A DNA stretch of 64,000 bases from an uncultured Chloroflexia bacterium (GTDB lineage: Bacteria; Chloroflexota; Limnocylindria; Limnocylindrales; CSP1-4): positions 194,193 to 258,192 of the forward strand of contig CAWIQP010000007.1 of NCBI GenBank assembly GCA_963838285.1. Reading direction: 5' to 3'. The position numbers and the translations under genes were made by a program. The notes beneath the pieces are model-generated. The model did no database searches, was not told the origin of the DNA, and saw nothing but the letters and a program-made list of their open reading frames with translations. Positions within the stretch are counted from its first letter, which is position 1. Every line of letters begins with the position of its first letter. This document shows, one piece after another, positions 3,116 through 46,443 of the stretch.

Positions 3116-4330
3116 ATGAACGCGATCACGGCGACTCGGCGGACGATCCGCAGGGAGTGGACGGCCTTCGGTGCCCTGCTGATCGTCAGCGTCGGCTTGA
3201 TGGGCATGTCCGGCACGCAGACGGCCCACGACATTCAGTCGGCCGCGAACTGGGCCGTGATGCCCGTCGAAACGTTCCTCAACAGCGCGGCGGACACGGT
3301 CGGTTCGTACTGGTCCGCTCTGACCCAGATCGACCGGCTGCGAACCGAGAACGAACAGCTGAAGCTCGAGAACCAGACTCTCCAGGAAGAGTTGGAGCGC
3401 GCTCCGGCCATTGCGAAGCTGAACGACGACTGGACGAAGATCACTTCCATTGCCTCGGGCGTGCAGTACCAGACGACGCCGGTTCGAGTAATCGTCCGGG
3501 ACGTCTCGGGAGTCAATCAGCGAACCCTGATCGTCAACAAGGGCAGCAACGACGGCCTCGTCGTGGACGAGGTGGTGATCGACGCCGGGGGAGCGCTTGT
3601 CGGCCGGATTCAATCCGTCGACGCCACCGTCTCGACCATCCTTCTCATCAGCGATCCGGCATCGGTCGTGGTCGGACGGGCGTACCTCGTCGGCACCGCC
3701 TCCGCGTCCGCGTCTCCGACGGCCGCCCCGTCCGCCGCCCCCGGCTCGGCAACCGGAACGGCCACGGGCACGATCAGCGGCACGATCAGCGGCCAGCTCC
3801 AGATGTCGAACATCGACGTCACCCCGGAGCAGTGCAAGACGCTCAAGGGCAAGTACGTGGTCACAGCCGGGGAGTCCCTTCCGGGCACGAACGACACGTC
3901 GCCCTTACCCGCCGGCTCTTCTGATCGGCACGATCACCGACGTCACGTGCGATCCCAACGCGGTCGTCCAGAGCGCGGTGGTCAGCCCCGCGGCCGAACT
4001 GAACGACGCCACGTTCCTGGCCGTGATCACCGACTACCAGGGCGGCTTCGGGCCGCCCATGCCGAGCGGCTGCCCTGGCATATCCGCGAGTCCGGGCAGT
4101 TCGGCGAGCCCGCGCGGCTCGGCCAGTCCGGGGACCTCCGCCGCCCCGGGCAGCTCCTGCGCCCCCGTCGGCTCCGCGTCGTCGTCGGTCGCGCCGCACC
4201 CAAACCGTCCGAGCACTGACGGCTCCGACGCGATCCCTCGCCGCCGGGCATCCGAGTCGCGCCCGGCGCGCGCGGCCCGGCCGGCGCACGGAGGCCGGCC
4301 GGCGCTGAGCGCCAAATCGAACCTGCTAAC
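3116..4330 (+). CDS. mreC: rod-shape protein MreC, interrupted by a +1 frameshift near 3906; 3' end uncertain
   Basis: N-terminal TM, coiled coil (LRTENEQLKLENQTLQEELERA) and MreC beta-domain in frame 2 up to about 3905. The conserved C-terminus (YPPALLIGTITDV...AVVSPAAELNDATFLAVITDY) continues in frame 3. The shift maps to a C homopolymer (tcgccc). A Ser/Pro/Ala-rich tail follows. Confidence 0.7.
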
Positions 4331-4359: not shown

Positions 4360-5118
4360 TTGAAGGGTCTCGTTCTGGCGGGAGGCACGGCCACTCGCCT
4401 CTTCCCGCTCACCATCGTCACCAACAAACACCTTCTGCCGATCTACGACCGGCCGATGATCTACTACCCCATCGCCACGCTGGCGGGCATGGGGATTCGA
4501 GAGGTCATGGTCATCGTCGGCGGCAAGAGCGTCGGGGACGTGGTGGAACTCCTGGCCGACGGTGAGCACTTCGGCCTGCACCTGACGTACCGCTACCAGC
4601 GCGGAGCCTTGGGCATCGCCCACGCCGTCGGCCTGGCCCGCGACTTCGTCGGCGACGAGGCGTTCTGCTGCGTCCTCGGCGACAACGTCCTGCTGGGGCC
4701 GCCGCTGGCGGACGCGGCGCGCGAATTCGAGACCGGACCGTGGGGCGCGGGAACGCTGCTCTACGAGGTCGCCGATCCGGAGCGGTTCGGCGTCGCCGAG
4801 CTCGACGCGAGCGGGAAAGTCGTCGGCTTCGAGGAGAAGCCCGCGCAGCCGAAGTCCAACTTGATCCCGATCGGCGTGTACTTCCTGCGCCCGGATGCCT
4901 TCGGCGTCGTCGACCAGCTCGTCCCGTCCGGCCGCGGCGAGCTGGAAATAACCGACCTGCTGAACCACTACCTGCCCGGGCGCCTCTTCGCTCCCCGGTT
5001 CGAAGGCATCTGGACCGATGCCGGCACCGTCACTTCCCTGATTCGAGCGGCCGAACTGGCCGAGCAGGAATCGCGGGCCGGTCGCCTGGCCGCTCCACCC
5101 GCCAGGCCCGGCACGTGA
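4360..5118 (+). CDS. rmlA: glucose-1-phosphate thymidylyltransferase
   Basis: LKGLVLAGGTATRLFPLT...PIYDRPMIYYP is typical RmlA/RfbA. TTG start at 4360. Confidence 0.9.
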   Translation: MKGLVLAGGTATRLFPLTIVTNKHLLPIYDRPMIYYPIATLAGMGIREVMVIVGGKSVGDVVELLADGEHFGLHLTYRYQRGALGIAHAVGLARDFVGDEAFCCVLGDNVLLGPPLADAAREFETGPWGAGTLLYEVADPERFGVAELDASGKVVGFEEKPAQPKSNLIPIGVYFLRPDAFGVVDQLVPSGRGELEITDLLNHYLPGRLFAPRFEGIWTDAGTVTSLIRAAELAEQESRAGRLAAPPARPGT

Positions 5119-20879: not shown

Positions 20880-21248
20880 TGGGCCTCCTGGCTGGCTTTG
20901 GTTCCGTAGAGAACCCACTTTGCCGCCATGGGGCCCTCTTCATGGCAGTCAGATGCCGGCCGGAATAGCGCGGGGCGCGGATCGGCGCGCCAGTCACCCG
21001 ATTCCGTCGCCTTCAAGGACCGCGGGGCGGGTCCGCTCCTGGCCAGATGCAGGGCTGGACTGTCATCCGGCCAGAACATCAGAGGCTGCGGGCCCTGTCG
21101 GGTGCCTGCTCGGTCGTCGGCGGTCGCGAGGATCGGTCCTCGCGCTACGGGGGCCGGCATCTGGCCAAGACGCCGGCCTCCAGCTCGGCCGGCGACCCAC
21201 GCCGTAGCGTGAATCGGCCGGCGGGCAAGCCGCTGCCCCCGCGCGGCG

Positions 21249-21335
21249 CCGCGGCCTGGCGCGTCGAGCGGCCTGGCGCGCCGTAGCGGCCTGGCGCGCC
21301 GTAGCGGCCTTGCCGTGGCCTATACCGTACGGTAT
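21249..21335. promoter_or_regulatory. about 18-bp tandem repeat (GCGGCCTGGCGCG-N5) x3.5, followed by a perfect 14-bp palindrome ATACCGTACGGTAT at the TetR start
   Basis: Read directly from the sequence. The palindrome (21322–21335) sits 10 bp upstream of an in-frame GTG (21345) that gives a conventional TetR N-terminus, so it is a candidate operator. Confidence 0.4.
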
Positions 21336-23365: not shown

Positions 23366-23495
23366 GTGGGCAGGCCGCGCGCGAGCCGGCCCCGAGTGGG
23401 GGCGAGCCGGCCCGGAGCACGGGCGGGCCGGCCCGGAGCACGGGCGAGCCGGCCCCGAGCACGGGCGAGCCGGCCGCGAGTGCGGGCGCGCCGCC

Positions 23496-25214
23496 TCAAG
23501 GCGCTCCGGCTGCCGCCGCGCCCTCGACCGTCCCGCGCCGCGTCATCCGGTAGAGCGCGAAGGCGCTCCCCACCAGCACCGCCATCATCACGTAGTCCGA
23601 GGCCATGTTCCGCCACGGCCGGTACATGTCGCCGGCAAAGGCAAATCCCACGATCTGCCAGGACACCATCGCCGCCAGCAGGGCGCCGGCCATCAGCCGC
23701 GCCAGGGGATCGGGCGGTGCCCGGTACACCCGCCACAGAGCGAGGAACGCCGCCGCGTAGAGGATCAGCTCCGCCGCCAGCGCAGGCAGACCCAACTCCG
23801 CGGCGGCTTCCGGGTACATCGAGTGTGCCCAGTCGAGATCGTCCTTCGCCTCCGGCGGTTTGTAGCGGCCCGGCACGTACTGCGTCTTGAACTGGTCCAG
23901 GCCGATGCCCAGCAGCGGGTGATCTACGGCCATCTCGATACCGGCGCGCGTGGCGTACCAGCGTTCCAGCAGCGAGCCCTGGCCGGACAGGGTCGACGGA
24001 TTCCAGGAGTCGTAGCGGCTCTCGCCCATCAGCGAGACCATCGCGCCCCGGTAGGCCTGCTCCAGCGGCGGGACGACCTGCAGGAAGAACGCCGGCCAGG
24101 GAATCACGACCGTCGAGAGCACGCACGTTGCCAGGACGATCGCGCCGCGCCGGCGCCAGCTGTGCACGACCAGAAGCACCAGTACGAGACAGCCTCCGAA
24201 GGTCGCCAGATAAGCGCTCTTCGAGAACGTGAAGAAGAGGCTCGCCAGCGACACGAGGATCGCCGCGACCAGCAGGGCAAGGACGCGGCGCCGCAGGTTC
24301 AGGTACCGATGCGCCGCCAGCGCTGCCAGCAGGATCGGCATGGCCATCGCCAGCATCTCCCCGAAGAGGCCGACGTTGAAGTAGGTGATGCGCGAGAAGT
24401 ACAGCCGGTCGTCCTGCAGCACGGCGAGCGTCTTCATCGCCGGAATGCTCTGCAGCATGTCGAGGAGGCCGCCCATTGCGACCGAGACCGCCAGAACGAC
24501 CGCCAGCAGCGCCAGATCGCGCCACCTCGGACGGAGGGCCAGGAGCAGCAAGGCCATCGCCACCGGCTCGAGGATGCCGTGCAGCAGGATGGTGGCGCTC
24601 GTCGAGCGATCGGGTGAAACGGCGGTCGAGAGCGTTGCCAGGATCAGCAACGCGACGATCGCCACGCCCGCCACGCGGTCCGGCGCGATCCGGGCCGGCA
24701 GACTACGCGACCGAGCCGGCAGGCCCCGGGATGTGGCCGAGGACGCCCGCGGTTGAGGCGGCTCGGACGACAGAGAAGCCGGCGGCCGAGGTGCGCCCGG
24801 AGCGGATGCCGCCGAGGCGGCCGCTTCCCGGCCGGGCTCGCGCAGCGCCACGCCCAGCGCCAGCACGCCGACGAACACCGTCTGGGAGATGACCTGGATC
24901 GGGCCGGCGTTCACCGACATCTGGGCGACGTCGAGGACGGGCGTCAGGAAGAGGACCGCGAGGAAACCCCGCCACGGGCGCACGACGGCATACCCGGCCA
25001 GGGCCGCGGCCAGGAGCGGCACGAGCCCGGCCACCACTCGGGCCACGGGGCCGGCCTGGATGTCGTACGGAGCGTGCTCGTCGAAGGCGTAGACGAGGAG
25101 CGTCGCCACCGAGACGGAGACGGCCGCGACGGTCCTCGCCAGAGCGCGACCGCGCAGGGCGCGGAGGTCGAAAGCGCGTCGGGCAGCTCGCACGATACGT
25201 TCGAGTTCAGGCAA
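23496..25214 (-). CDS. O-antigen ligase/polymerase-family (Wzy_C) polytopic membrane protein
   Basis: About 12 predicted TM helices and a periplasmic loop with ...ERWYATRAGIEMAVDHPLLGIGLDQF..., the O-antigen-ligase signature. An internal Ser/Pro/Ala-rich cytoplasmic loop is present. Confidence 0.75.
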   Translation of the reverse strand: MPELERIVRAARRAFDLRALRGRALARTVAAVSVSVATLLVYAFDEHAPYDIQAGPVARVVAGLVPLLAAALAGYAVVRPWRGFLAVLFLTPVLDVAQMSVNAGPIQVISQTVFVGVLALGVALREPGREAAASAASAPGAPRPPASLSSEPPQPRASSATSRGLPARSRSLPARIAPDRVAGVAIVALLILATLSTAVSPDRSTSATILLHGILEPVAMALLLLALRPRWRDLALLAVVLAVSVAMGGLLDMLQSIPAMKTLAVLQDDRLYFSRITYFNVGLFGEMLAMAMPILLAALAAHRYLNLRRRVLALLVAAILVSLASLFFTFSKSAYLATFGGCLVLVLLVVHSWRRRGAIVLATCVLSTVVIPWPAFFLQVVPPLEQAYRGAMVSLMGESRYDSWNPSTLSGQGSLLERWYATRAGIEMAVDHPLLGIGLDQFKTQYVPGRYKPPEAKDDLDWAHSMYPEAAAELGLPALAAELILYAAAFLALWRVYRAPPDPLARLMAGALLAAMVSWQIVGFAFAGDMYRPWRNMASDYVMMAVLVGSAFALYRMTRRGTVEGAAAAGAP

Positions 25215-25403: not shown

Positions 25404-27132
25404 CTAGACCTGAACGGCGGTGACCAGCGACACCATCTGGCAGGTCGAGGTAGTCCCGCACAGGAACCGCTCCTCGTAGCCCGCCGGCGTTGCGATCACG
25501 ACGCGCCACAGGGTCGGGTACTCGCGCCGGCACATCTGGCAGACCTTGCCCCGGCGGCCGAGCTGCGGACGACCGAGAGGGACCTGCGCCGGGTGCGGCC
25601 AGGCCGTCTGAGCGGGTGCGGGCGGGGGCGGGGGCGTAGCCGGTGTCGGCGGGGGCGGGGGCGCTACGGGTGCGGGCGGGGGTTTGGGCGCGACGGGCGG
25701 GGGAACCGGGGCGGGCTTCGGAGACGCGGGTGCCGCCGCGGCAGCCGGTGCCGCCGGGCCGGGTGCGGGCTTCTCAGCCGCGAGGGGCGCACGCTGGGTT
25801 GGCGCGGGGGCGGGAGCGGCGGGTGAGGACTCGGCGCCGCCGGCCTGGACACCCGTTTCGGTCGCGCCGGAGTCGAGCGTCTCGGTCGCGCCGGAGTCGA
25901 GCGTCTCGGCCACAGGCCCCGGCTCTGGCGTCGGCGGCCTGCGACTCGATCTCCGGTTCCACCGCCGGCTCCGGCTCGGGCTCCGGCAGCGACCAGACTG
26001 GCGCCTTGCCCGCCAGCGTTCGATAGTCGAACTTGCACTTGGGGCAGGTTCGCAGGACCACGTCCCGGGCCAGATCGGCGCATTTCGGGCAGAACGTGAC
26101 GATCCGCTCGTCCGCCTCCATGCCCTGGCAGCGCGAGCAGACGTACGCCGGGTCGAGCCTCTTGAGCTTGAACACCTGTCCCAGGACGAAGGTCGGCGAG
26201 ATGCCGCCCTTGCTGATCGTGGCGCCGACGCCCGCCATGATGTCGCCGATCTTTTCGTTCCGGGCCGCGATGCGCTGGTATTCCGGGTTGGTGATTTTCT
26301 CGAGCCGGCAGCTGCGGCAGATGTGGAGCTGCCGGAGCGGCAGCGCCGATCTGATCTCGGCCTGCTGGTTCAGAAAGTCGAACACCGGGAGTTGCGCGTC
26401 GGGCACTTCGACCGACGCGGCCTTGCCGCCCGCGGCGGTCAGCTTGATCTCGATGGCCGCGGCAAGCGCCTCCACGTCCCGGGCCAGGTTCGGCGGCATC
26501 GACCCGGGGTGGGAGGCGACCATGACGGCGACGCCGAGCCGGGCCTGCGTTTCCGCCAGAGTGAGCACCGCCACTCCGGCACTCGACGTGAACGTGACCG
26601 AATCCACTCCCTTCCAAACCCTGGGCGTGGTGCCGGCCTGGCCGTCCAAAGCCTTGCCCGCGACCCCCACCGCGCTCCCGACCGCCTTCGAAGTCAGGAC
26701 GCTGGTCTGCTCGAGGACGCCGACGTCCCCGGCCCTGCTCCAGAAAACCGGCTCGGCAAACGTCTGCGACGCGGCGCCGTCCAGCCTGGAGAAACCCAGG
26801 TCCACGCGGCGCTGAACCTCGTCGAAGAGGTCGCGGTACTGGCGGTTGATGCCGAAGGTCTTGCCCAGGTTCTTGACGTTGTCCGTCAGATGGCATCCCA
26901 CGCGGCAGGCCGAGGCGTCCGGCACGACCTCGAAGACGGCCAGCACCGGCATCTTCTGCTTCATCAGCAGCGAGTAGCCGATCATGCTGCCGCGCTTGGC
27001 CTCGATCCTCGTCAGCTGATCGACGGTGATCTCGAATCCCAGCTCGCGCAGGGCCTCCGAGATCGTCCGACGGACGTCGAAGGCAGAGGCCGACAGTTGG
27101 CGCTCGAAATCGAGCCCGCAGGTAGCCGACAC
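25404..27132 (-). CDS. hypothetical protein: ~310-aa unknown N-terminal domain, tandem CxxC zinc ribbons, PEPEPEP/Pro-Ala-rich linker, small Cys-containing C-terminal domain; a frameshift probably fuses two ORFs near 25915–25960
   Basis: ORF 25774..27132 (CRSC...CSRC...CPKC...CPKC) and ORF 25404..25913 (ETLDSGATETLDSGATE..., 110-aa P/A-rich region, ...KVCQMCRREYPTLW...CGTTSTC) overlap in different frames. A 24-bp direct repeat sits at about 25860–25910. Confidence 0.4.
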
Positions 27133-27145
27133 GTCGAGTCAGTGG

Positions 27146-27817
27146 CTAGAACGGAGATTCGTGTTCGTGCTCCGGTTCGGGCTCGCTCGACCCGCTGTCG
27201 ACCGTCCCCGACTCGCCCGTGGCGTAGTCGTAGGAACTCATGTCGGAGGCGCCGGCGTCGTACTGACCCGGTTCGTGCTCGGCGGCGGCGCCCGGAGCGG
27301 GGGCGTCGCCCGGAGCGGGCGCTCCGCCGGCGGTCTCACGATACTCGGCGGCCATCTCGAATTCGGCCTGGGCCATGACGGCGGACTCGGCTCCGAGCTC
27401 CGCGGCGACCTGGGCCTCGGCCAGCTCTTCGCGCGCGGCTTCGGGTTCGCCGTAGGCGGCCCATTCGCTGGCGGCCTGCAGATGCTCGGACGCGACTTCT
27501 TCCATTACGGCCGCGGTCGCGAGCGAGCCCTGACCCCACTCCTCCCAGGTGGCGGCCGAGTCGGGCAGAGCCGAGGCGGCGTCCGGGTTCGGTTCCGGCG
27601 TACCGGCAGCAGCGGCGCCGGCGGCCTCGGCCGGCTGGTCTGTCGCGGAGCCGGGTGCGGCGGCCGGCTCGTCCTGAGGTTGCGCGGCCCCCGCCGGCGC
27701 GTCCTGAGGTTGCGCGGCCCCCGCCGGCGCGGCGCCGGATGGGTCGTTGGCCGCTGGCGCCGCATTCTTGTCGCCCAACGTGTCCGCGGCGAACTGTCCC
27801 CGGTCTGCGTCAGCCAT
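27146..27817 (-). CDS. acidic Ala/Glu/Pro-rich low-complexity (probably disordered) protein
   Basis: 223-aa ORF, strongly acidic with no TM segment. Contains a perfect 30-bp tandem duplication at about 27668–27727 encoding PAGAAQPQDA/PAGAAQPQDE. Same strand as, and immediately upstream of, the zinc-ribbon ORF. Confidence 0.4.
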   Translation of the reverse strand: MADADRGQFAADTLGDKNAAPAANDPSGAAPAGAAQPQDAPAGAAQPQDEPAAAPGSATDQPAEAAGAAAAGTPEPNPDAASALPDSAATWEEWGQGSLATAAVMEEVASEHLQAASEWAAYGEPEAAREELAEAQVAAELGAESAVMAQAEFEMAAEYRETAGGAPAPGDAPAPGAAAEHEPGQYDAGASDMSSYDYATGESGTVDSGSSEPEPEHEHESPF

Positions 27818-35840: not shown

Positions 35841-37043
35841 ATGGCCCGCTTTTCGACTCGCGCAATTCTGGCGGCGACCCGGTCGCCCGAAGTCAACCAG
35901 ATGCCGTCCGCCGTCCCGATCTACCAGGCCGCAGCCTTCTCGACCGGCGACGCCGAGGAGCTGGGCGACGTCCTGACCGGCGCTCGGCCGGGCTATGCCT
36001 ACAGCCGAATCGACAATCCCACCACGGCGGCGCTTGGCGACGCGGTCGCCGATCTGGAAGGCGCGGAGGCCGGGCTTGCCTTCGCCTCCGGCATGGCCGC
36101 GATCCACGCCGCGATCCTCTCGACGGTCCATGCGGGCCAGACGATCGTTGCGACGCAGGCCGTGTACGGCACCACGCGCGACCTCCTGGTCCGGATTCTG
36201 GCCGGTCTCGCCATCGCGACCGAGTTCGTCGATCCCACCGACCTCCCCGCCGTCGACGCCGCCCTGGCGCGAACCGGCGCCCCGGTGCTGTACGTCGAGA
36301 CGATCTCGAACCCGACCATCGTCGTATCGGACATCGCAGAGCTCGCCGCGATCGCGCACCAGAGAGGGGCGCTGCTCCTGGTCGACAACACGTTCGCCTC
36401 GCCGTACGCCTGCCGGCCGATCGAGCGGGGCGCCGACCTGGTGATGCACTCCGCCACGAAGTACCTCTCCGGCCACGCCGACGCTCTGGCGGGCGTCGTG
36501 GTCGGGAGCCGCGAGCGAGTCGACGCCCTCCGCCCGATCCTGGTGGACGCCGGTGGCGCGCTCGCGCCGCTGGCCGCCTTCCTGGTGCTGCGCGGCCTTC
36601 CTACCCTCGCATTGCGGATGGAGCGGCACAGCGAGACGGCCCTCGAACTGGCGGCGTGGCTGCAGGGCCAGGACAACGTCGAGCGGGTTCACTACCCCGG
36701 GCTGGCGCAGGATCCCTGCCACGCGGTGGCGGTGAGGCAGCTCGACGTCTTCGGCGGCATGCTGGCCTTCGAGCTGAGCGGCGGCCGCGAAGCCGGTCGA
36801 GCGTTCCTGGACGCGATGCGGATCGCGGAACGAACCGCCTCGCTCGGGGCGGTGCGGACGATCACGACTCACCCGCCCTCAACCACGCACCGCCAGCTGG
36901 ACGCGGCCGCCCTGGCGGCGAGCGGCATCGCCCCGGGCCTGCTGCGCTGCTCGGTGGGCCTCGAGGACGTGGAGGACCTGCGCGAGGACTTCCAACGCGG
37001 CCTCGAGGCCGCCCGCGAGGTCGGCGGGGCGCCGTCCAGGTAG
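35841..37043 (+). CDS. Cys/Met-metabolism PLP-dependent enzyme (cystathionine gamma-synthase/lyase or methionine gamma-lyase family)
   Basis: ...VDNTFASPY...DLVMHSATKYLSGHAD... (PLP lysine in SATKY), the MetB/MetC/MGL fold. Real start may be the ATG at 35901. Confidence 0.85.
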   Translation: MARFSTRAILAATRSPEVNQMPSAVPIYQAAAFSTGDAEELGDVLTGARPGYAYSRIDNPTTAALGDAVADLEGAEAGLAFASGMAAIHAAILSTVHAGQTIVATQAVYGTTRDLLVRILAGLAIATEFVDPTDLPAVDAALARTGAPVLYVETISNPTIVVSDIAELAAIAHQRGALLLVDNTFASPYACRPIERGADLVMHSATKYLSGHADALAGVVVGSRERVDALRPILVDAGGALAPLAAFLVLRGLPTLALRMERHSETALELAAWLQGQDNVERVHYPGLAQDPCHAVAVRQLDVFGGMLAFELSGGREAGRAFLDAMRIAERTASLGAVRTITTHPPSTTHRQLDAAALAASGIAPGLLRCSVGLEDVEDLREDFQRGLEAAREVGGAPSR

Positions 37044-37529
37044 GGCCGAGGCCGCGAGGGCGGCGTGGCGAAGGGGCGCCGCGGAGCGTGGCGGGGTGCG
37101 GGCGGGGAGGGCCGCCGGACGGGACGGGGCCGCGAGGGGTGGCGCGCGGGCGTGGCGGGCGGCGCCACTCGGCGCGGGGCGTTGCAGGGCCGCGGGGCGG
37201 GGCGCGGGGGGCGCAGGGCGGCAGGGAGGGGCCGCGGGGCGGCGCGGGGCGTGGCGGGCGGCGCAACTGGGCGCGCAGGGCAGCCCAGACCCGACCACCC
37301 GACGCGATTTCCGAATTCACACCAGGACGACACCGAGCAAGACTCGACGGCCCGAGCCCAGCGAAGAACCTGCGACCGACTCGGTGGAAGGGTCAATCCA
37401 CGCTCAATCCGGTCGTCTCGGATGCTCCTGCGAGACACGGGCCCCGTCTGCCCCTCCGCGCACGACCCACCGCCTGCCCAATGTCGCTCTGATGTGAATT
37501 GGGAAACTTGCCCACGACGGGGCCGCACG

Positions 37530-37760
37530 GCGGACCCGGTGCCGCCACGGGATCCCCGGCACCCGCCCCGGGACCCGGCGCCGCCACGGGACCGGCCCCC
37601 ACGGAACCTGGCGCCGCCACGTAGCCTGGCCCGCCACGTAACCCCGGCACCCGCCACGTAACCCGTGCCCGCCGCGTAACCGGTGCCGGCACGTAGCTCC
37701 GGAATCCGCCACGTAGCCCGCGTCGGCCACGTGACCCGTGCCCGCCACGTAGCCACGGAA
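37530..37760. repeat. tandem array of about 12 degenerate 17–18-bp units, consensus (C)CGCCACGTARCC-N4–5
   Basis: Visible periodicity of CCGCCACGGGA/CCGCCACGTAGCC/CCGCCACGTAACC/GGCCACGTGACC every 17–18 bp. Lies between the convergent PLP gene and glnN. Preceded by a G-rich low-complexity tract (37044–37300). Confidence 0.6.
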
Positions 37761-37767
37761 CCCGGCC

Positions 37768-37818
37768 GGGCACAAAGAAGCCGCCTCCCCCGGCCGCAGG
37801 ATCGGGAGAGGCGGCTTC
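37768..37818 (-). terminator. rho-independent terminator of glnN (11-bp perfect stem GAAGCCGCCTC/GAGGCGGCTTC, 20-nt loop, T-rich tail on the minus strand)
   Basis: Hairpin about 10 bp downstream of the glnN stop (37829–37831). Minus-strand tail is TTCTTTGTG. Confidence 0.6.
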
Positions 37819-37828
37819 GAAACGTCGC

Positions 37829-39979
37829 TCAGTACTGGAAGAGCAACTCGCGGTACTTCGGGAGCGGCCACAGCTCGTCGGACACGAGCGTCTCGAGTTC
37901 GTCGGCTGCGTCTCGGAGCGCCTCCTGGGCCGGGATCACGTTCTCCTTGAAGGCCTTCGCCTCGGCGTGGACCGAGCCTGCCTCGTGGGCTGCGTGCTGG
38001 GCCTTCTCGAGGGCGTGGATCGCGTCGACGAGCTTGTCGGTCAGAGCCGCGACCGCGTCGGCGACCAGGGTCACGCCCTTCGACTTGCCGGCGCCGGCCA
38101 GCTCGCCCAGGTACTTCGCGGCCGCGGGCAGGATCATGGTCTTGGCCATGTCCAGTGCGCAGTTGGCCTCGATGTTCGAAACCTTGACGTAGCGCTCCCA
38201 GCTGATCTCGACGCGGGAGGCCAGCTCGCGCTCGGACAGGATGCCAAGCTTGGAGAAGAGCTTCTTCGCCTTCGCGGTCTCGAGGGACGGAAGGGCGTCG
38301 ACCGTGCTGGTGTTGTTGGGCAATCCACGCTTTGCCGCCTCGGCATGCCACTCCTCGGCGTAGTTGTTGCCCTCGAACAGGACCTGCTTGTTCTCCTTGA
38401 TGATCGTGGCCAGGATCTTCGAGAGACCGGCCATGTCGTTCGGCTTGAGCTTCTCCAGATCGTCGGCCAGCTTCTCAAGGGAGTCGGCGACGATCGCGTT
38501 GAGAGCCGTCTGCGGCCAGTAGATCGGCGCCGACGACCCCACCGCGCGGAACTCGAACTTGTTGCCGGTGAAGGCGAAGGGCGAGGTTCGGTTACGGTCG
38601 GTTGCGTCCTTCGGCAGCACGGGCATCGAGGTGACGCCCAGCTCCAGGGAGCCGCCCTTCTTGGAGGTCGAGGCCGTTCCGGCCTCCAGCTGCTCGACCA
38701 CGTCCTCCAGCTGCTCGCCGAGGAAGATCGAGACGATGGCCGGCGGAGCCTCGTTCGCGCCCAGTCGGTGGTCGTTGCCGGCGTCGGCGACGCTGGCCCG
38801 CAGGATGTCGGCGTTGACGTTGACGGCGCGGATGATCGCCGCCAGGAACGCCAGGAACTGCGCGTTCGCGTGCGGATCGTGGCCCGGGTCGAGCAGGTTC
38901 TCGCCGTCGTCGGTGCCCATCGACCAGTTGTTGTGCTTGCCCGAGCCGTTGATGCCCCGGAAGGGCTTCTCGTGGCTCAGGAACATCAGGTCGTGCTGGC
39001 GGGCGAGGCGCCGCATCGTGCTCATTACGATCATGTTGTGATCGGAGCCGACGGACGTGGCCTCGTAGACCGGGGCCATCTCGAACTGGGCGGGCGCCAC
39101 CTCGTTGTGGCGGGTCTTGGACGGGATGCCCAGGCGCCACAGCTCGCGGTCCAGATCCATCATGAAGGCCAGCATGCGCTCGCGGATCGAGCCGAAGTAC
39201 TGGTCCTCCAGTTCCTGGCCCTTCGGCGACGGGGCGCCGAAGAGCGTGCGGCCGGTGAGGATCAGGTCGGGGCGCTGCTCGGCCAGGCGGCGGTCGACCA
39301 GGAAGTATTCCTGCTCGGGTCCGATGTTGGTGAAGACGCGGTCGGTGGTCGTGTTGCCGAACCAGCGCAGGACGCGCAGCGCCTGCTTACCCAGGGCCTC
39401 CTGGGAGCGGAGCATCGGGATCTTGTGGTCCAGCGCCTCGCCGGTGTACGAGACGAAGGCGGTCGGAATGGTAAGCGTCACGCCGTTGGGCTCGACCTGA
39501 AGGAAGATCGGGCTCGTGAGGTCCCAGGCCGTGTAGCCGCGCGCCTCGAAAGTGGAGCGAATGCCGCCCGAGGGGAATGAGCTCGCATCGGGCTCGCCCT
39601 GTACCAGGCCCTTGCCCGAGAACTCCGCGATCGTCTTGGCTTCGCCCGCGGGATTGAGGAAGGAGTCGTGCTTCTCGGCGGTCGAGCCGGTCATCGGCAC
39701 GAACCAGTGCGTGTAGTGCGTGGCGCCGTGGGCCATCGCCCATTCCTTCACGCCCTGGGCGACGGCGTCGGCGATGCTCGAATCGAAGGGCTCGCAACCC
39801 TCGATCGTCTGGCGCAGCTTCTTGAAGACGGGCTTGGCCAGGTACTGGCGCTGGGCGTCCTCGCCGAAGACGTACTCGCCGTAGATGTCTCCGCCGGCGT
39901 GCTCGAGGTAGTTCTGGGTGGAGGCCACCTTGTGGCTGGCGATCGCCTCGATGGCCTTCTGACGAGCGGTCATTTGCAC
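37829..39979 (-). CDS. glnN: glutamine synthetase type III
   Basis: 716 aa with GSIII-typical N-terminal extension and a catalytic domain containing ...RLGANEAPPAIVSIFLG..., NRTSPFAFTGNKFEFRAVGSS. Confidence 0.9.
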   Translation of the reverse strand: MQMTARQKAIEAIASHKVASTQNYLEHAGGDIYGEYVFGEDAQRQYLAKPVFKKLRQTIEGCEPFDSSIADAVAQGVKEWAMAHGATHYTHWFVPMTGSTAEKHDSFLNPAGEAKTIAEFSGKGLVQGEPDASSFPSGGIRSTFEARGYTAWDLTSPIFLQVEPNGVTLTIPTAFVSYTGEALDHKIPMLRSQEALGKQALRVLRWFGNTTTDRVFTNIGPEQEYFLVDRRLAEQRPDLILTGRTLFGAPSPKGQELEDQYFGSIRERMLAFMMDLDRELWRLGIPSKTRHNEVAPAQFEMAPVYEATSVGSDHNMIVMSTMRRLARQHDLMFLSHEKPFRGINGSGKHNNWSMGTDDGENLLDPGHDPHANAQFLAFLAAIIRAVNVNADILRASVADAGNDHRLGANEAPPAIVSIFLGEQLEDVVEQLEAGTASTSKKGGSLELGVTSMPVLPKDATDRNRTSPFAFTGNKFEFRAVGSSAPIYWPQTALNAIVADSLEKLADDLEKLKPNDMAGLSKILATIIKENKQVLFEGNNYAEEWHAEAAKRGLPNNTSTVDALPSLETAKAKKLFSKLGILSERELASRVEISWERYVKVSNIEANCALDMAKTMILPAAAKYLGELAGAGKSKGVTLVADAVAALTDKLVDAIHALEKAQHAAHEAGSVHAEAKAFKENVIPAQEALRDAADELETLVSDELWPLPKYRELLFQY

Positions 39980-44400: not shown

Positions 44401-44488
44401 GCGCGATCATCGCGCAACGGCGCCGAAACGGCACAGGGCGCGGGCCGGCGGCCCAGCGCGGCGCCCCGGGCGGCCTTTCGGGCCGCTA

Positions 44489-46443
<1,955 letters not shown>

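Follow-up and report, generated by a model that had tools for sequence, protein, structure and literature searches.

A polymorphic non-coding minisatellite beside a covarying inverted repeat between two convergent genes of an uncultured Chloroflexota bacterium

Organization of the spacer between the PLP-enzyme gene and glnN

The window in this study is a stretch of 64,000 nucleotides from the genome of an uncultured Chloroflexia bacterium of the Limnocylindrales, and the locus analyzed is the spacer between two of its convergent genes. The left neighbor, on the plus strand, encodes a PLP enzyme of Cys/Met metabolism (35841–37043; Pfam PF01053 Cys_Met_Meta_PP, E = 8.7e-118), and the conspecific contigs L081 and L082 code for the identical protein. 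The right neighbor, on the minus strand, is glnN, which encodes a type III glutamine synthetase (37829–39979; Pfam GSIII_N, Gln-synt_C, and Gln-synt_C-ter). Its nearest homologues come from MAGs of uncultured Chloroflexi or Ca. Limnocylindrales, at 77–85% identity. The immediate gene neighborhood consists of the PLP enzyme, the glutamine synthetase (GSIII), a GHMP kinase, an aminotransferase, and a sigma factor. Between the two genes we found, from left to right, a G-rich low-complexity tract (37044–37285), recognized by its base composition, G4 motifs, and internal direct repeat; the two 32-nt arms of a long-range inverted repeat (37308–37339 and 37475–37506) around a variable interior of about 135 nt (37340–37474); a minisatellite made up of a proto-unit, 12 complete units, and a partial unit (37521–37761); and an intrinsic terminator hairpin (37777–37818). 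Among these features, only the terminator is assigned to a strand (minus). The order given in the initial annotation, a G-rich tract followed by a 12-unit array and then the glnN hairpin, was confirmed by TRF, by reading of the units, and by an inverted-repeat search.

The hairpin has a 16-bp stem (37777–37792 / 37803–37818; 16 nt, 94% complementary) and a 10-nt loop. A terminator scan showed that its tail on the minus strand is TTCTTTGTG, and the plus strand has no U tract. Since only the minus strand provides a U-rich tail, the hairpin is the terminator of glnN. It consists of a GC-rich hairpin followed by a U tract, as expected of an intrinsic terminator, and it stands directly after the array, as had been described. 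Homologous hairpins are located 3' of glnN in six contigs of related lineages (L005, L083, L166, L169, L175, and L181). For the PLP gene, no separate terminator lies upstream of 37777. In the same window, a second convergent-gene spacer (23381–23493) is likewise occupied by a tandem array (21 bp × 5.4).

TRF detected a period-18 array at 37532–37764, in which single rows comprised 5–10 copies with 69–75% matches and 12–15% indels. A higher-order period of 55 bp × 3.0, corresponding to three units, was also detected. With a score of 170, it ranked second among all TRF arrays of the window and first within the high-GC part. When the units were delimited by hand, 12 complete head-to-tail units of 15–20 bp were obtained at 37536–37753: U1 (37536–37554, 19 bp), U2 (37555–37574, 20 bp), U3 (37575–37592, 18 bp), U4 (37593–37607, 15 bp), U5 (37608–37625, 18 bp), U6 (37626–37642, 17 bp), U7 (37643–37662, 20 bp), U8 (37663–37680, 18 bp), U9 (37681–37697, 17 bp), U10 (37698–37717, 20 bp), U11 (37718–37735, 18 bp), and U12 (37736–37753, 18 bp). 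A degenerate proto-unit (37521–37535) precedes them, and a partial unit (37754–37761) follows. The period and copy number that were to be established with TRF are thus a period of 18, with 15–20-bp units in 12 complete copies by hand count. Each unit contains a 12-nt core, CCGCCACG(T/G)RRC, and a variable stretch of 3–8 nt separates one core from the next. The core carries CGTA/CGTG in U5–U12 and CACGG/CCCGG in U1–U4, and among the 12 units it is clearly more conserved than the 3–8-nt spacer. All 12 units are in direct orientation, and ACGT is their only self-complementary part. On the plus strand the array contains more C than G (skew about -0.23; G about 29%), and it includes a G4 motif on the minus strand at 37554–37576 (four runs of at least 3 G, 1–7 nt apart).

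The array is confined to this locus in all the DNA that was searched. At up to 2 mismatches, CCGCCACGTARC had 27 matches in the window compared with 15.5 ± 4.1 expected, a count higher than in all 100 shuffles. Ten of these matches lie inside the array, and the remaining 17 correspond to the chance expectation. No second copy of the spacer was found in the window by BLAST, and a motif search of the window and 80 loci did not find the unit dispersed. The initial annotation had pointed out that a unit scattered over the genome would be a generic repeat, and all sequence searched (the window and the 80 loci) was negative for such scatter. It had also stated that the array is not a CRISPR. This was borne out by the period of 15–20 bp and by the absence of both cas genes and a leader from the neighborhood; the stretches of 3–8 nt separating the cores are too short for unique spacers, and CRISPR repeats of about 23–47 bp would be expected. 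The position outside any convincing ORF was also upheld. Overlapping ORFs, e.g., one of 295 aa at 36869–37756 on the minus strand, fail the GC3 criterion; neither the unit lengths nor the allele indels are multiples of three; and tblastx between lineages matched all frames, with stops, and showed no frame-specific conservation. The translated spacer center had no match in a protein-database search. Head-to-tail units within the 10–100-bp range of minisatellites, beyond chance, are present in 12 copies with TRF scores of 116–170. These results, together with the allele comparison below, show that the array is a real, local, non-coding, and polymorphic minisatellite (VNTR).

The left tract has a GC content of 86–94% and a GC skew of +0.27 to +0.49 at 37050–37250. 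Canonical G4 motifs were found on the plus strand at 37093–37111 and 37176–37258, in agreement with the earlier suggestion that the G tract is G4-capable; this is at the level of the motif, and the folding is predicted. A direct repeat of about 30 bp, spaced by about 100 bp, had been described in this tract. The repeat is present, but it is longer than claimed: BLAST aligned 37086–37176 with 37192–37275 at 80% identity over 92 nt. We also considered whether the left tract is a specific inverted copy of the array, with CGTGGCGGG facing CCCGCCACG. This was rejected, as the left tract and the reverse-complemented array had no more k-mers in common than did dinucleotide-preserving shuffles (p = 0.17–0.6 in the window and 0.05–0.08 in L082). 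The mirror resemblance of the two segments arises because they have opposite base compositions.

Variation of the spacer within the species and among related lineages

Three conspecific contigs (L081, L082, and L194) were obtained by exact-protein look-ups and compared with the window; their flanking genes are at least 99% identical. The four alleles represent four independent assemblies from three studies, of which L194 was recovered from an unrelated JGI sample. Because the neighboring genes are frameshifted in L081, an assembly of poor quality, we relied mainly on the window, L082, and L194. With such frameshifts, some of the allele differences could be sequencing errors.

The spacer is 785, 727, 728, and 725 bp long in the four alleles. 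The PLP gene of the window is 99.3% and 99.1% identical to those of L081 and L082, which are 99.75% identical to each other, and the window values for glnN are 99.9% and 99.8%. In the spacer center the window is 93.7% identical to L081/L082 (98.8% between L081 and L082). The corresponding values are 70% in the left tract (100%) and 60–62% in the right array (88.6%). The left tract of this other allele type consists of about 4–5 copies of the unit GGCGCCACTCRGCGCGGGG, and the G-rich tract, like the array, evolves fast and bears repeats. Alignment of the arrays of the window and L081/L082 required unit-sized gaps of 15–17 and 33–35 bp. In the other allele type, the array is made up of about nine units (TRF 18 bp × 9), and 9–12 units are present across the four assemblies. 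L194 has a left tract (1 SNP) and a center (2 SNPs) of the L082 type, and its array is again different. The window and L082 have 29 differences in 6.2 kb of the left flank (about 99.5% identical), and other intergenic regions of the same strains differ by 0.5–1%. Relative to this genome background, divergence is about 10 times higher in the interior of the spacer and about 70 times higher in the arrays. The spacer is unusually variable and prone to tandem repeats.

An artefact of assembly, i.e., collapse or expansion of the repeat or long-read error, would also produce arrays of different lengths. The frameshifted neighbors in L081 are typical of an unpolished long-read assembly, and the short-read contig of a related lineage, L178, breaks inside its array. 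However, four independent assemblies from three studies place the array, with 9–12 units, at the same position between intact and collinear flanks, and the differences include many substitutions in addition to changes in length. We regard an artefact as extremely improbable. Both copy number and sequence are polymorphic among the four conspecific alleles, as assembled, which is the behavior expected of a VNTR.

We then compared the same spacer in related lineages. The nearest other species is represented by L181–L190 and L193, in which the PLP gene is 86.6% identical at the nucleotide level. Six lineages are at about 80% nucleotide identity (L163, L166, L169, L172, L175, and L178), and the same convergent gene pair is present in the more distant L083, L005, and L017. 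A metagenome scan with the PLP enzyme had two close relatives among the matches listed. Different arrays occupy the position between the central element and the glnN terminator: L166 has CCGCGCCACGG (12 bp × 8.5), L178 has GGGGCGGGGCG (12 bp × at least 6.6, where the contig ends inside the array), L163 has GCGGGCGCGG (10 bp × 5.1), and L175 has three CGCCACTC units. L181 has only one CCCGCCACGA, together with a 31-bp repeat × 2.4. No array was found in L169, L172, L005, or L017. The spacers of these lineages measure 134, 156, about 100, and about 20 bp, respectively, and contain at most the terminator hairpin. The spacer of the L181 type was identical in nine of ten samples and had 1 SNP in the tenth; instability of the array accompanies its copy number, and this few-copy spacer is stable. 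The CACGTA core was found in the species of the window only. A CGCCAC(G/T) motif recurs beside the terminator in L166, L175, L083, L169, and L181, and the arrays of L163 and L178 do not contain CGCCAC. Since sister lineages have different arrays or none, the CACGTA array appears to be a recent, species-specific expansion from a CGCCACG-type seed. Among the three possible explanations in the initial annotation, a minisatellite prone to slippage agrees with these data: the number and sequence of units differ among the four alleles, and the arrays of sister lineages are unrelated or missing.

It had also been proposed that the array is a set of binding sites for a regulator recognizing CACGTG. 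In a broader form of this explanation, the units would be iteron-like sites for a protein recognizing CCGCCACGTA, which could be a regulator or a polymerizing protein of the centromere or partition type. The conservation of the core relative to the spacer among the 12 units and the recurrence of CGCCAC(G/T) beside the terminator in five lineages would fit such sites. However, the unit sequence is not conserved among the lineages that share the central element: the core is restricted to one species, CCCGCCACG occurs just once in the nearest species, and CGCCAC is missing from L163 and L178. The copy number is unstable, from 1 to 12, and the 15–20-bp spacing is irregular and off the helical repeat; with such unit lengths, neither a reading frame nor helical phasing is kept. 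The array lies at two gene 3' ends and not at a promoter, and outside it the window shows no enrichment of the motif. A Pfam scan of five flanking genes recognized no DNA-binding protein except an ECF-type sigma factor, whose gene is about 4 kb from the array. Plasmid iteron and centromere arrays (R1 parC, F sopC, and P1 parS) are likewise tandem short direct repeats, sometimes in two blocks around a center. They differ in having a fixed unit length and phasing, adjacent rep or par genes, and conservation along with a binding protein. None of these is seen here, where the unit changes with the lineage and Pfam identified no adjacent rep, par, or regulator gene. The regulator proposal was not supported, and we consider binding sites in the broader form very unlikely.

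The inverted repeat in the spacer center

The only conserved part of the spacer is the inverted repeat in its center, which was absent from the initial annotation. Its 32-nt arms (37308–37339 / 37475–37506) are 78% complementary and 135 nt apart, and the whole element is about 200 bp long. The arms have no differences between the window and L081/L082, compared with about 13 differences in the 135 nt of the interior; L194 has 2 SNPs in the left arm. Homologous arms in the same orientation are present in L181, L166, L163, and L178, which makes five lineages together with that of the window. A triplet in the arms changes in a compensatory manner, being ACA/ACA, TCA/TCA, and CCG/CCG in three lineages. 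Covariation was examined in a 7-sequence alignment with a 25-pair closing stem. In this stem, 90% of the cells were paired compared with 22–46% when the partners were slid, 5 pairs were altered on both sides, and only 2 of 500 shuffles equaled the covariation score. RNAalifold recovered the same closing stem. The spacer center also folds better than shuffles on both strands (z = -2.8 to -5.3). These results show that the arms are conserved and covarying. The interior can be aligned between the two closest species only, and AATCCACGCTCAATC is the sole stretch that they have in common. In L175, the corresponding place is taken by another inverted repeat, of 35 nt, which is arranged in the same way. 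The hairpin element is absent from the close relatives L169 and L172, which indicates that it is dispensable.

Pairing of the arms was equal on the two strands (107 of 132 cells each). An assignment to one strand by G·U pairs was attempted and rejected, as the strands tie and the preference by minimum free energy varies among lineages. A promoter in the arms was also rejected: there is no sigma-70-type match, and a TTGCCx-N16-GAATNx pattern noticed by eye does not have the invariant T at its end. Patterns for sigma-54, ECF, CRP, GlnR, or TnrA were not consistent across the lineages. Mutagenesis of the DGR type does not account for the interior, where the differences are mostly ordinary transitions and are not adenine-specific. 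A trans-acting antisense regulator of glnN or the PLP gene was rejected as well, since the duplex energies at the 5' regions of these genes are unremarkable compared with those at 24 other gene starts. The element is not an inverton by the features examined: the interior had the same orientation in 15 of 15 distinct contigs of the two closest species, Pfam found no recombinase among five flanking genes, and no sigma-70-type promoter was found. A replication origin was considered, as a cumulative GC-skew minimum lies at about 37 kb, and was rejected. This minimum tracks the switch in gene orientation, DnaA boxes, an AT-rich region, and dnaA are lacking, and the element is absent from close relatives.

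The arms could also be the terminal inverted repeats of a decayed, non-autonomous mobile element (MITE- or REPIN-like) inserted beside the glnN terminator, with the arrays as subterminal repeats or insertion scars. Terminal inverted repeats, as in a MITE, are provided by the 32-nt arms, which covary within each lineage like the matched ends of a transposon. The element is patchily distributed among equally distant relatives, and the different inverted repeat of L175, with its identical layout in the same place, would also fit. However, fuzzy and nhmmer searches of 1.47 Mb of fetched sequence, 45 kb of it from this genome, found the arms at this locus only. The exact arm consensus had no match in metagenome contigs, and BLAST against plasmids and phages found none. 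There is no target-site duplication at the arm boundaries and no transposase nearby. Moreover, the lineages share both the orientation of the element and the adjoining GGAAACTT…CCACGACGG, as would be expected under vertical descent. A mobile origin is accordingly given a low probability, similar to that of the binding sites.

A structured 3' UTR had been the third explanation offered in the initial annotation. Next, we examined the folding of the arrays and of the whole spacer. On their own, the arrays did not outperform shuffles in folding (plus strand of the array, z = 0.21). The one exception was the minus-strand transcript of the array, in which structure was modest (z = -2.1) and CUACGUGG is self-complementary with G·U pairs. 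In the predicted fold of 37040–37830, the left tract is paired with the array. This would fit the possibility that selection acts on the whole spacer as RNA, with the arrays as part of the element. The G-rich and C-rich flanks could pair and lengthen the central hairpin, giving a long structured 3' UTR or a bidirectional termination zone, or the C-rich array could be a Rho loading site for plus-strand transcripts. Such selection is also consistent with the lack of a terminator for the PLP gene before 37777, where the U tail is on the minus strand only, with the excess of C over G in the plus-strand array, and with the modest structure of the minus-strand array RNA. On the other hand, the whole-spacer folds do not stand out from those of shuffles (z = -1.0 and -1.8), the k-mer sharing of left tract and array in the window is explained by composition alone, and the arrays alone are unstructured on the plus strand. 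The G content of about 29% is high for a rut site. Among the relatives, L166 resembles the window in the C-rich plus strand of its array and lacks a left array, and in L163 and L178 the plus strand of the array is G-rich; this reversed composition argues against a strand-specific RNA role for the arrays. We regard selection on the whole spacer as RNA as unlikely. None of 4227 Rfam covariance models reached its gathering score in the spacer, and at E ≤ 10 nothing was credible (best E 0.33, an animal miRNA model).

Interpretation and relation to known repeat systems

The explanation that we favor, with just better than even confidence for the package as a whole, is a non-coding minisatellite next to an arm hairpin that acts as a 3'-end structure or insulator; its descriptive part is firmer than the functional part. 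The array would have arisen by slipped-strand mispairing or unequal recombination on a CGCCACG-type seed adjoining the glnN terminator, and it would keep gaining, losing, and mutating units, so that its exact sequence is unlikely to matter or to be selected. The 32-nt arms closing a variable loop of about 135 nt would be the part under selection. RNA copied from either strand would fold, through the arms, into the same long hairpin, and the spacer may be a strand-symmetric 3'-end structure or insulator between the converging transcripts of the PLP enzyme and glnN. The GC-skewed arrays would then supply length and composition, prone to G4 or R-loops on one strand and C-rich on the other, and not specific sites. 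We infer both the slippage origin and any role in transcript ends from the comparison of sequences. Some observations count against this explanation. The hairpin element is missing from L169 and L172, and the strand composition of the arrays varies among the lineages. In addition, the core of the units is better conserved than the spacer, which may reflect a constraint on the core as a binding site or an RNA motif and not neutral drift. For this last reason, we retain the binding-site and selected-RNA explanations at the low levels given above, the latter being the less unlikely of the two.

The central element could have a more active part in the formation of the arrays. It may be an undescribed functional non-coding element of Ca. 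Limnocylindrales, restricted to this lineage and acting as RNA or as a DNA site where glnN and the PLP gene meet, which nucleates repeat formation. Such an element would locally raise mutation and the formation of tandem repeats: a different array has arisen beside it in each of five lineages, and divergence of the interior exceeds that of other intergenic DNA in the same strains about 10 times. The arrays could then be functional as well, e.g., as a repeat-built RNA that titrates a protein. We consider this doubtful. Our literature search found nothing on such repeats in this lineage.

Among known systems, the array qualifies as a bacterial intergenic VNTR. Like the mycobacterial MIRU-VNTR and ETR loci, it consists of head-to-tail, non-coding units of tens of bp that vary among strains in number and sequence, with higher-order periodicity, and slippage or unequal recombination is the likely driver. 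It differs in its irregular units of 15–20 bp compared with 40–100 bp, in having no dispersed family and no small overlapping ORFs, and in its position at convergent 3' ends beside a conserved inverted repeat. REP/BIME clusters of Proteobacteria are GC-rich, are located at gene 3' ends and often between convergent genes, and have a proposed role in transcript ends or mRNA stability, as outlined in a preprint (bioRxiv 10.64898/2026.03.23.713779). In a REPIN, two inverted copies form a long hairpin, like the arms here. REP units, however, are imperfect palindromes in alternating orientation, with tens to hundreds of copies per genome and a RAYT transposase. The units here are all direct, with only ACGT self-complementary, and no second copy of unit or arm, and no dispersed family of the REP/BIME/REPIN kind, was found in 45 kb of this genome and 1.47 Mb of loci. 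Copies and target-site duplications of the MITE kind were likewise not found in the DNA searched. Bidirectional intrinsic terminators also have an inverted repeat between converging stop codons that gives the same hairpin on both strands. They have a short loop and a stem of 5–15 bp, compared with a stem of about 25–32 bp closing an interior of about 135 nt here, and a conventional hairpin is already present at 37777–37818.

As an ordinary bacterial minisatellite, the array is a potential strain-typing marker for an abundant, uncultured lineage of soil Chloroflexi, and spacers of this kind break or distort metagenome assemblies. The context may be more important than the array itself, namely a covarying hairpin between convergent metabolic genes beside which different arrays have arisen repeatedly. 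If this pattern is general, spacers between convergent genes in high-GC bacteria would be hotspots of repeat birth, possibly linked to transcription collisions, R-loops, or G4 DNA.

Divergence and shared layout around the inverted-repeat element

The inverted-repeat element in the spacer between the PLP-enzyme gene and glnN has 32-nt arms (37308–37339 and 37475–37506). Its interior was compared with that of three contigs of the same species, L081, L082 and L194, used as alleles. Over positions 37286–37530 of the window, the interior differed by approximately 6–10% between strains, and other intergenic regions of the same strains differed by 0.5–1%. In the PLP gene, the differences clustered in the 3' two-thirds, which is the side nearest the spacer. 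This divergence could reflect either a locally elevated mutation rate or recombination that imported a divergent allele.

A lineage of the same clade, L175 (approximately 80% nucleotide identity), carries an inverted repeat of 35 nt at 3768–3802 and 3940–3974, with arms that are 74% complementary and 137 nt apart. Its position corresponds to that of the element in the window and the layout is alike, but the sequence is different. It is flanked by GAGTGGCG on the left and by three CGCCACTC units on the right.

In four related MAGs (L002, L008, L019 and L023), the glnN match extended over 3.0–3.2 kb, compared to the approximately 2.15 kb expected. A tblastn check returned glnN of normal length; in L008 the gene was offset by approximately 1 kb, and in L019 it fell into two segments. 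The extra matched DNA may be a partial duplicate.

Composition break near position 45,625

At approximately 45,625 (junction within 45,600–45,650), the GC content falls abruptly from approximately 70% to 36–52%, and the low-GC stretch continues to 64,000. The drop lies approximately 1 kb beyond a tRNA-Pro(CGG) gene (44543–44619). The ORF across the junction (44486–46081, minus strand) is a fused reading frame, in which the low-GC DNA contributes the N-terminal 152 aa. These residues make up an NAD-dependent DNA ligase adenylation domain that is truncated, covering positions 63–208 of the 253 in the Pfam model. Housekeeping genes, namely those for EF-G and an ABC transporter, are also found on the low-GC side. 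Rather than a genomic island, the break appears to be a chimera, in which two unrelated genomes were joined by an assembly or binning error or by concatenation.

Tandem arrays in the window and in a sister lineage

In the sister lineage L178, contig Ga0486829_002092, which comes from a short-read metagenome, terminates within its (GGGGCGGGGCG)n array (4902–4980). Such arrays break assemblies, and therefore they are probably more frequent than public short-read MAGs suggest.

Further repeats were present in the window. An 18-bp array of 3.4 copies (21241–21310; unit GCGGCCTGGCGCGCCGTA, 95% matches) lies directly upstream of an ORF starting at 21315, and its unit bears a loose likeness to units of the main array, CGCCACGTAGCCTGG. 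A near-perfect 30-bp direct repeat of 2.3 copies (27663–27731; 97% matches) is located within or at the 5' end of a minus-strand ORF (27146–27817). In the gap separating two minus-strand genes (23496–25214 and 25774–27132), a G-rich array of approximately three 27-bp copies with G4 motifs (25611–25715) broadly resembles the G-rich left tract (37044–37285). This array possibly codes for a proline-rich segment of a small ORF on the minus strand, and hence may not be non-coding.

A 21-bp array of 5.4 copies (23381–23493; unit GCGAGCCGGCCCCGAGCACGG, TRF score 156) occupies almost the whole of a second spacer bounded by two convergent stops. The left bound is the apparent TAA stop of a plus-strand ORF at approximately 23363, as judged from the sequence, and the right bound is the stop codon of the gene at 23496–25214 on the minus strand. 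Convergent-gene spacers with tandem arrays may be a recurrent trait of this genome.
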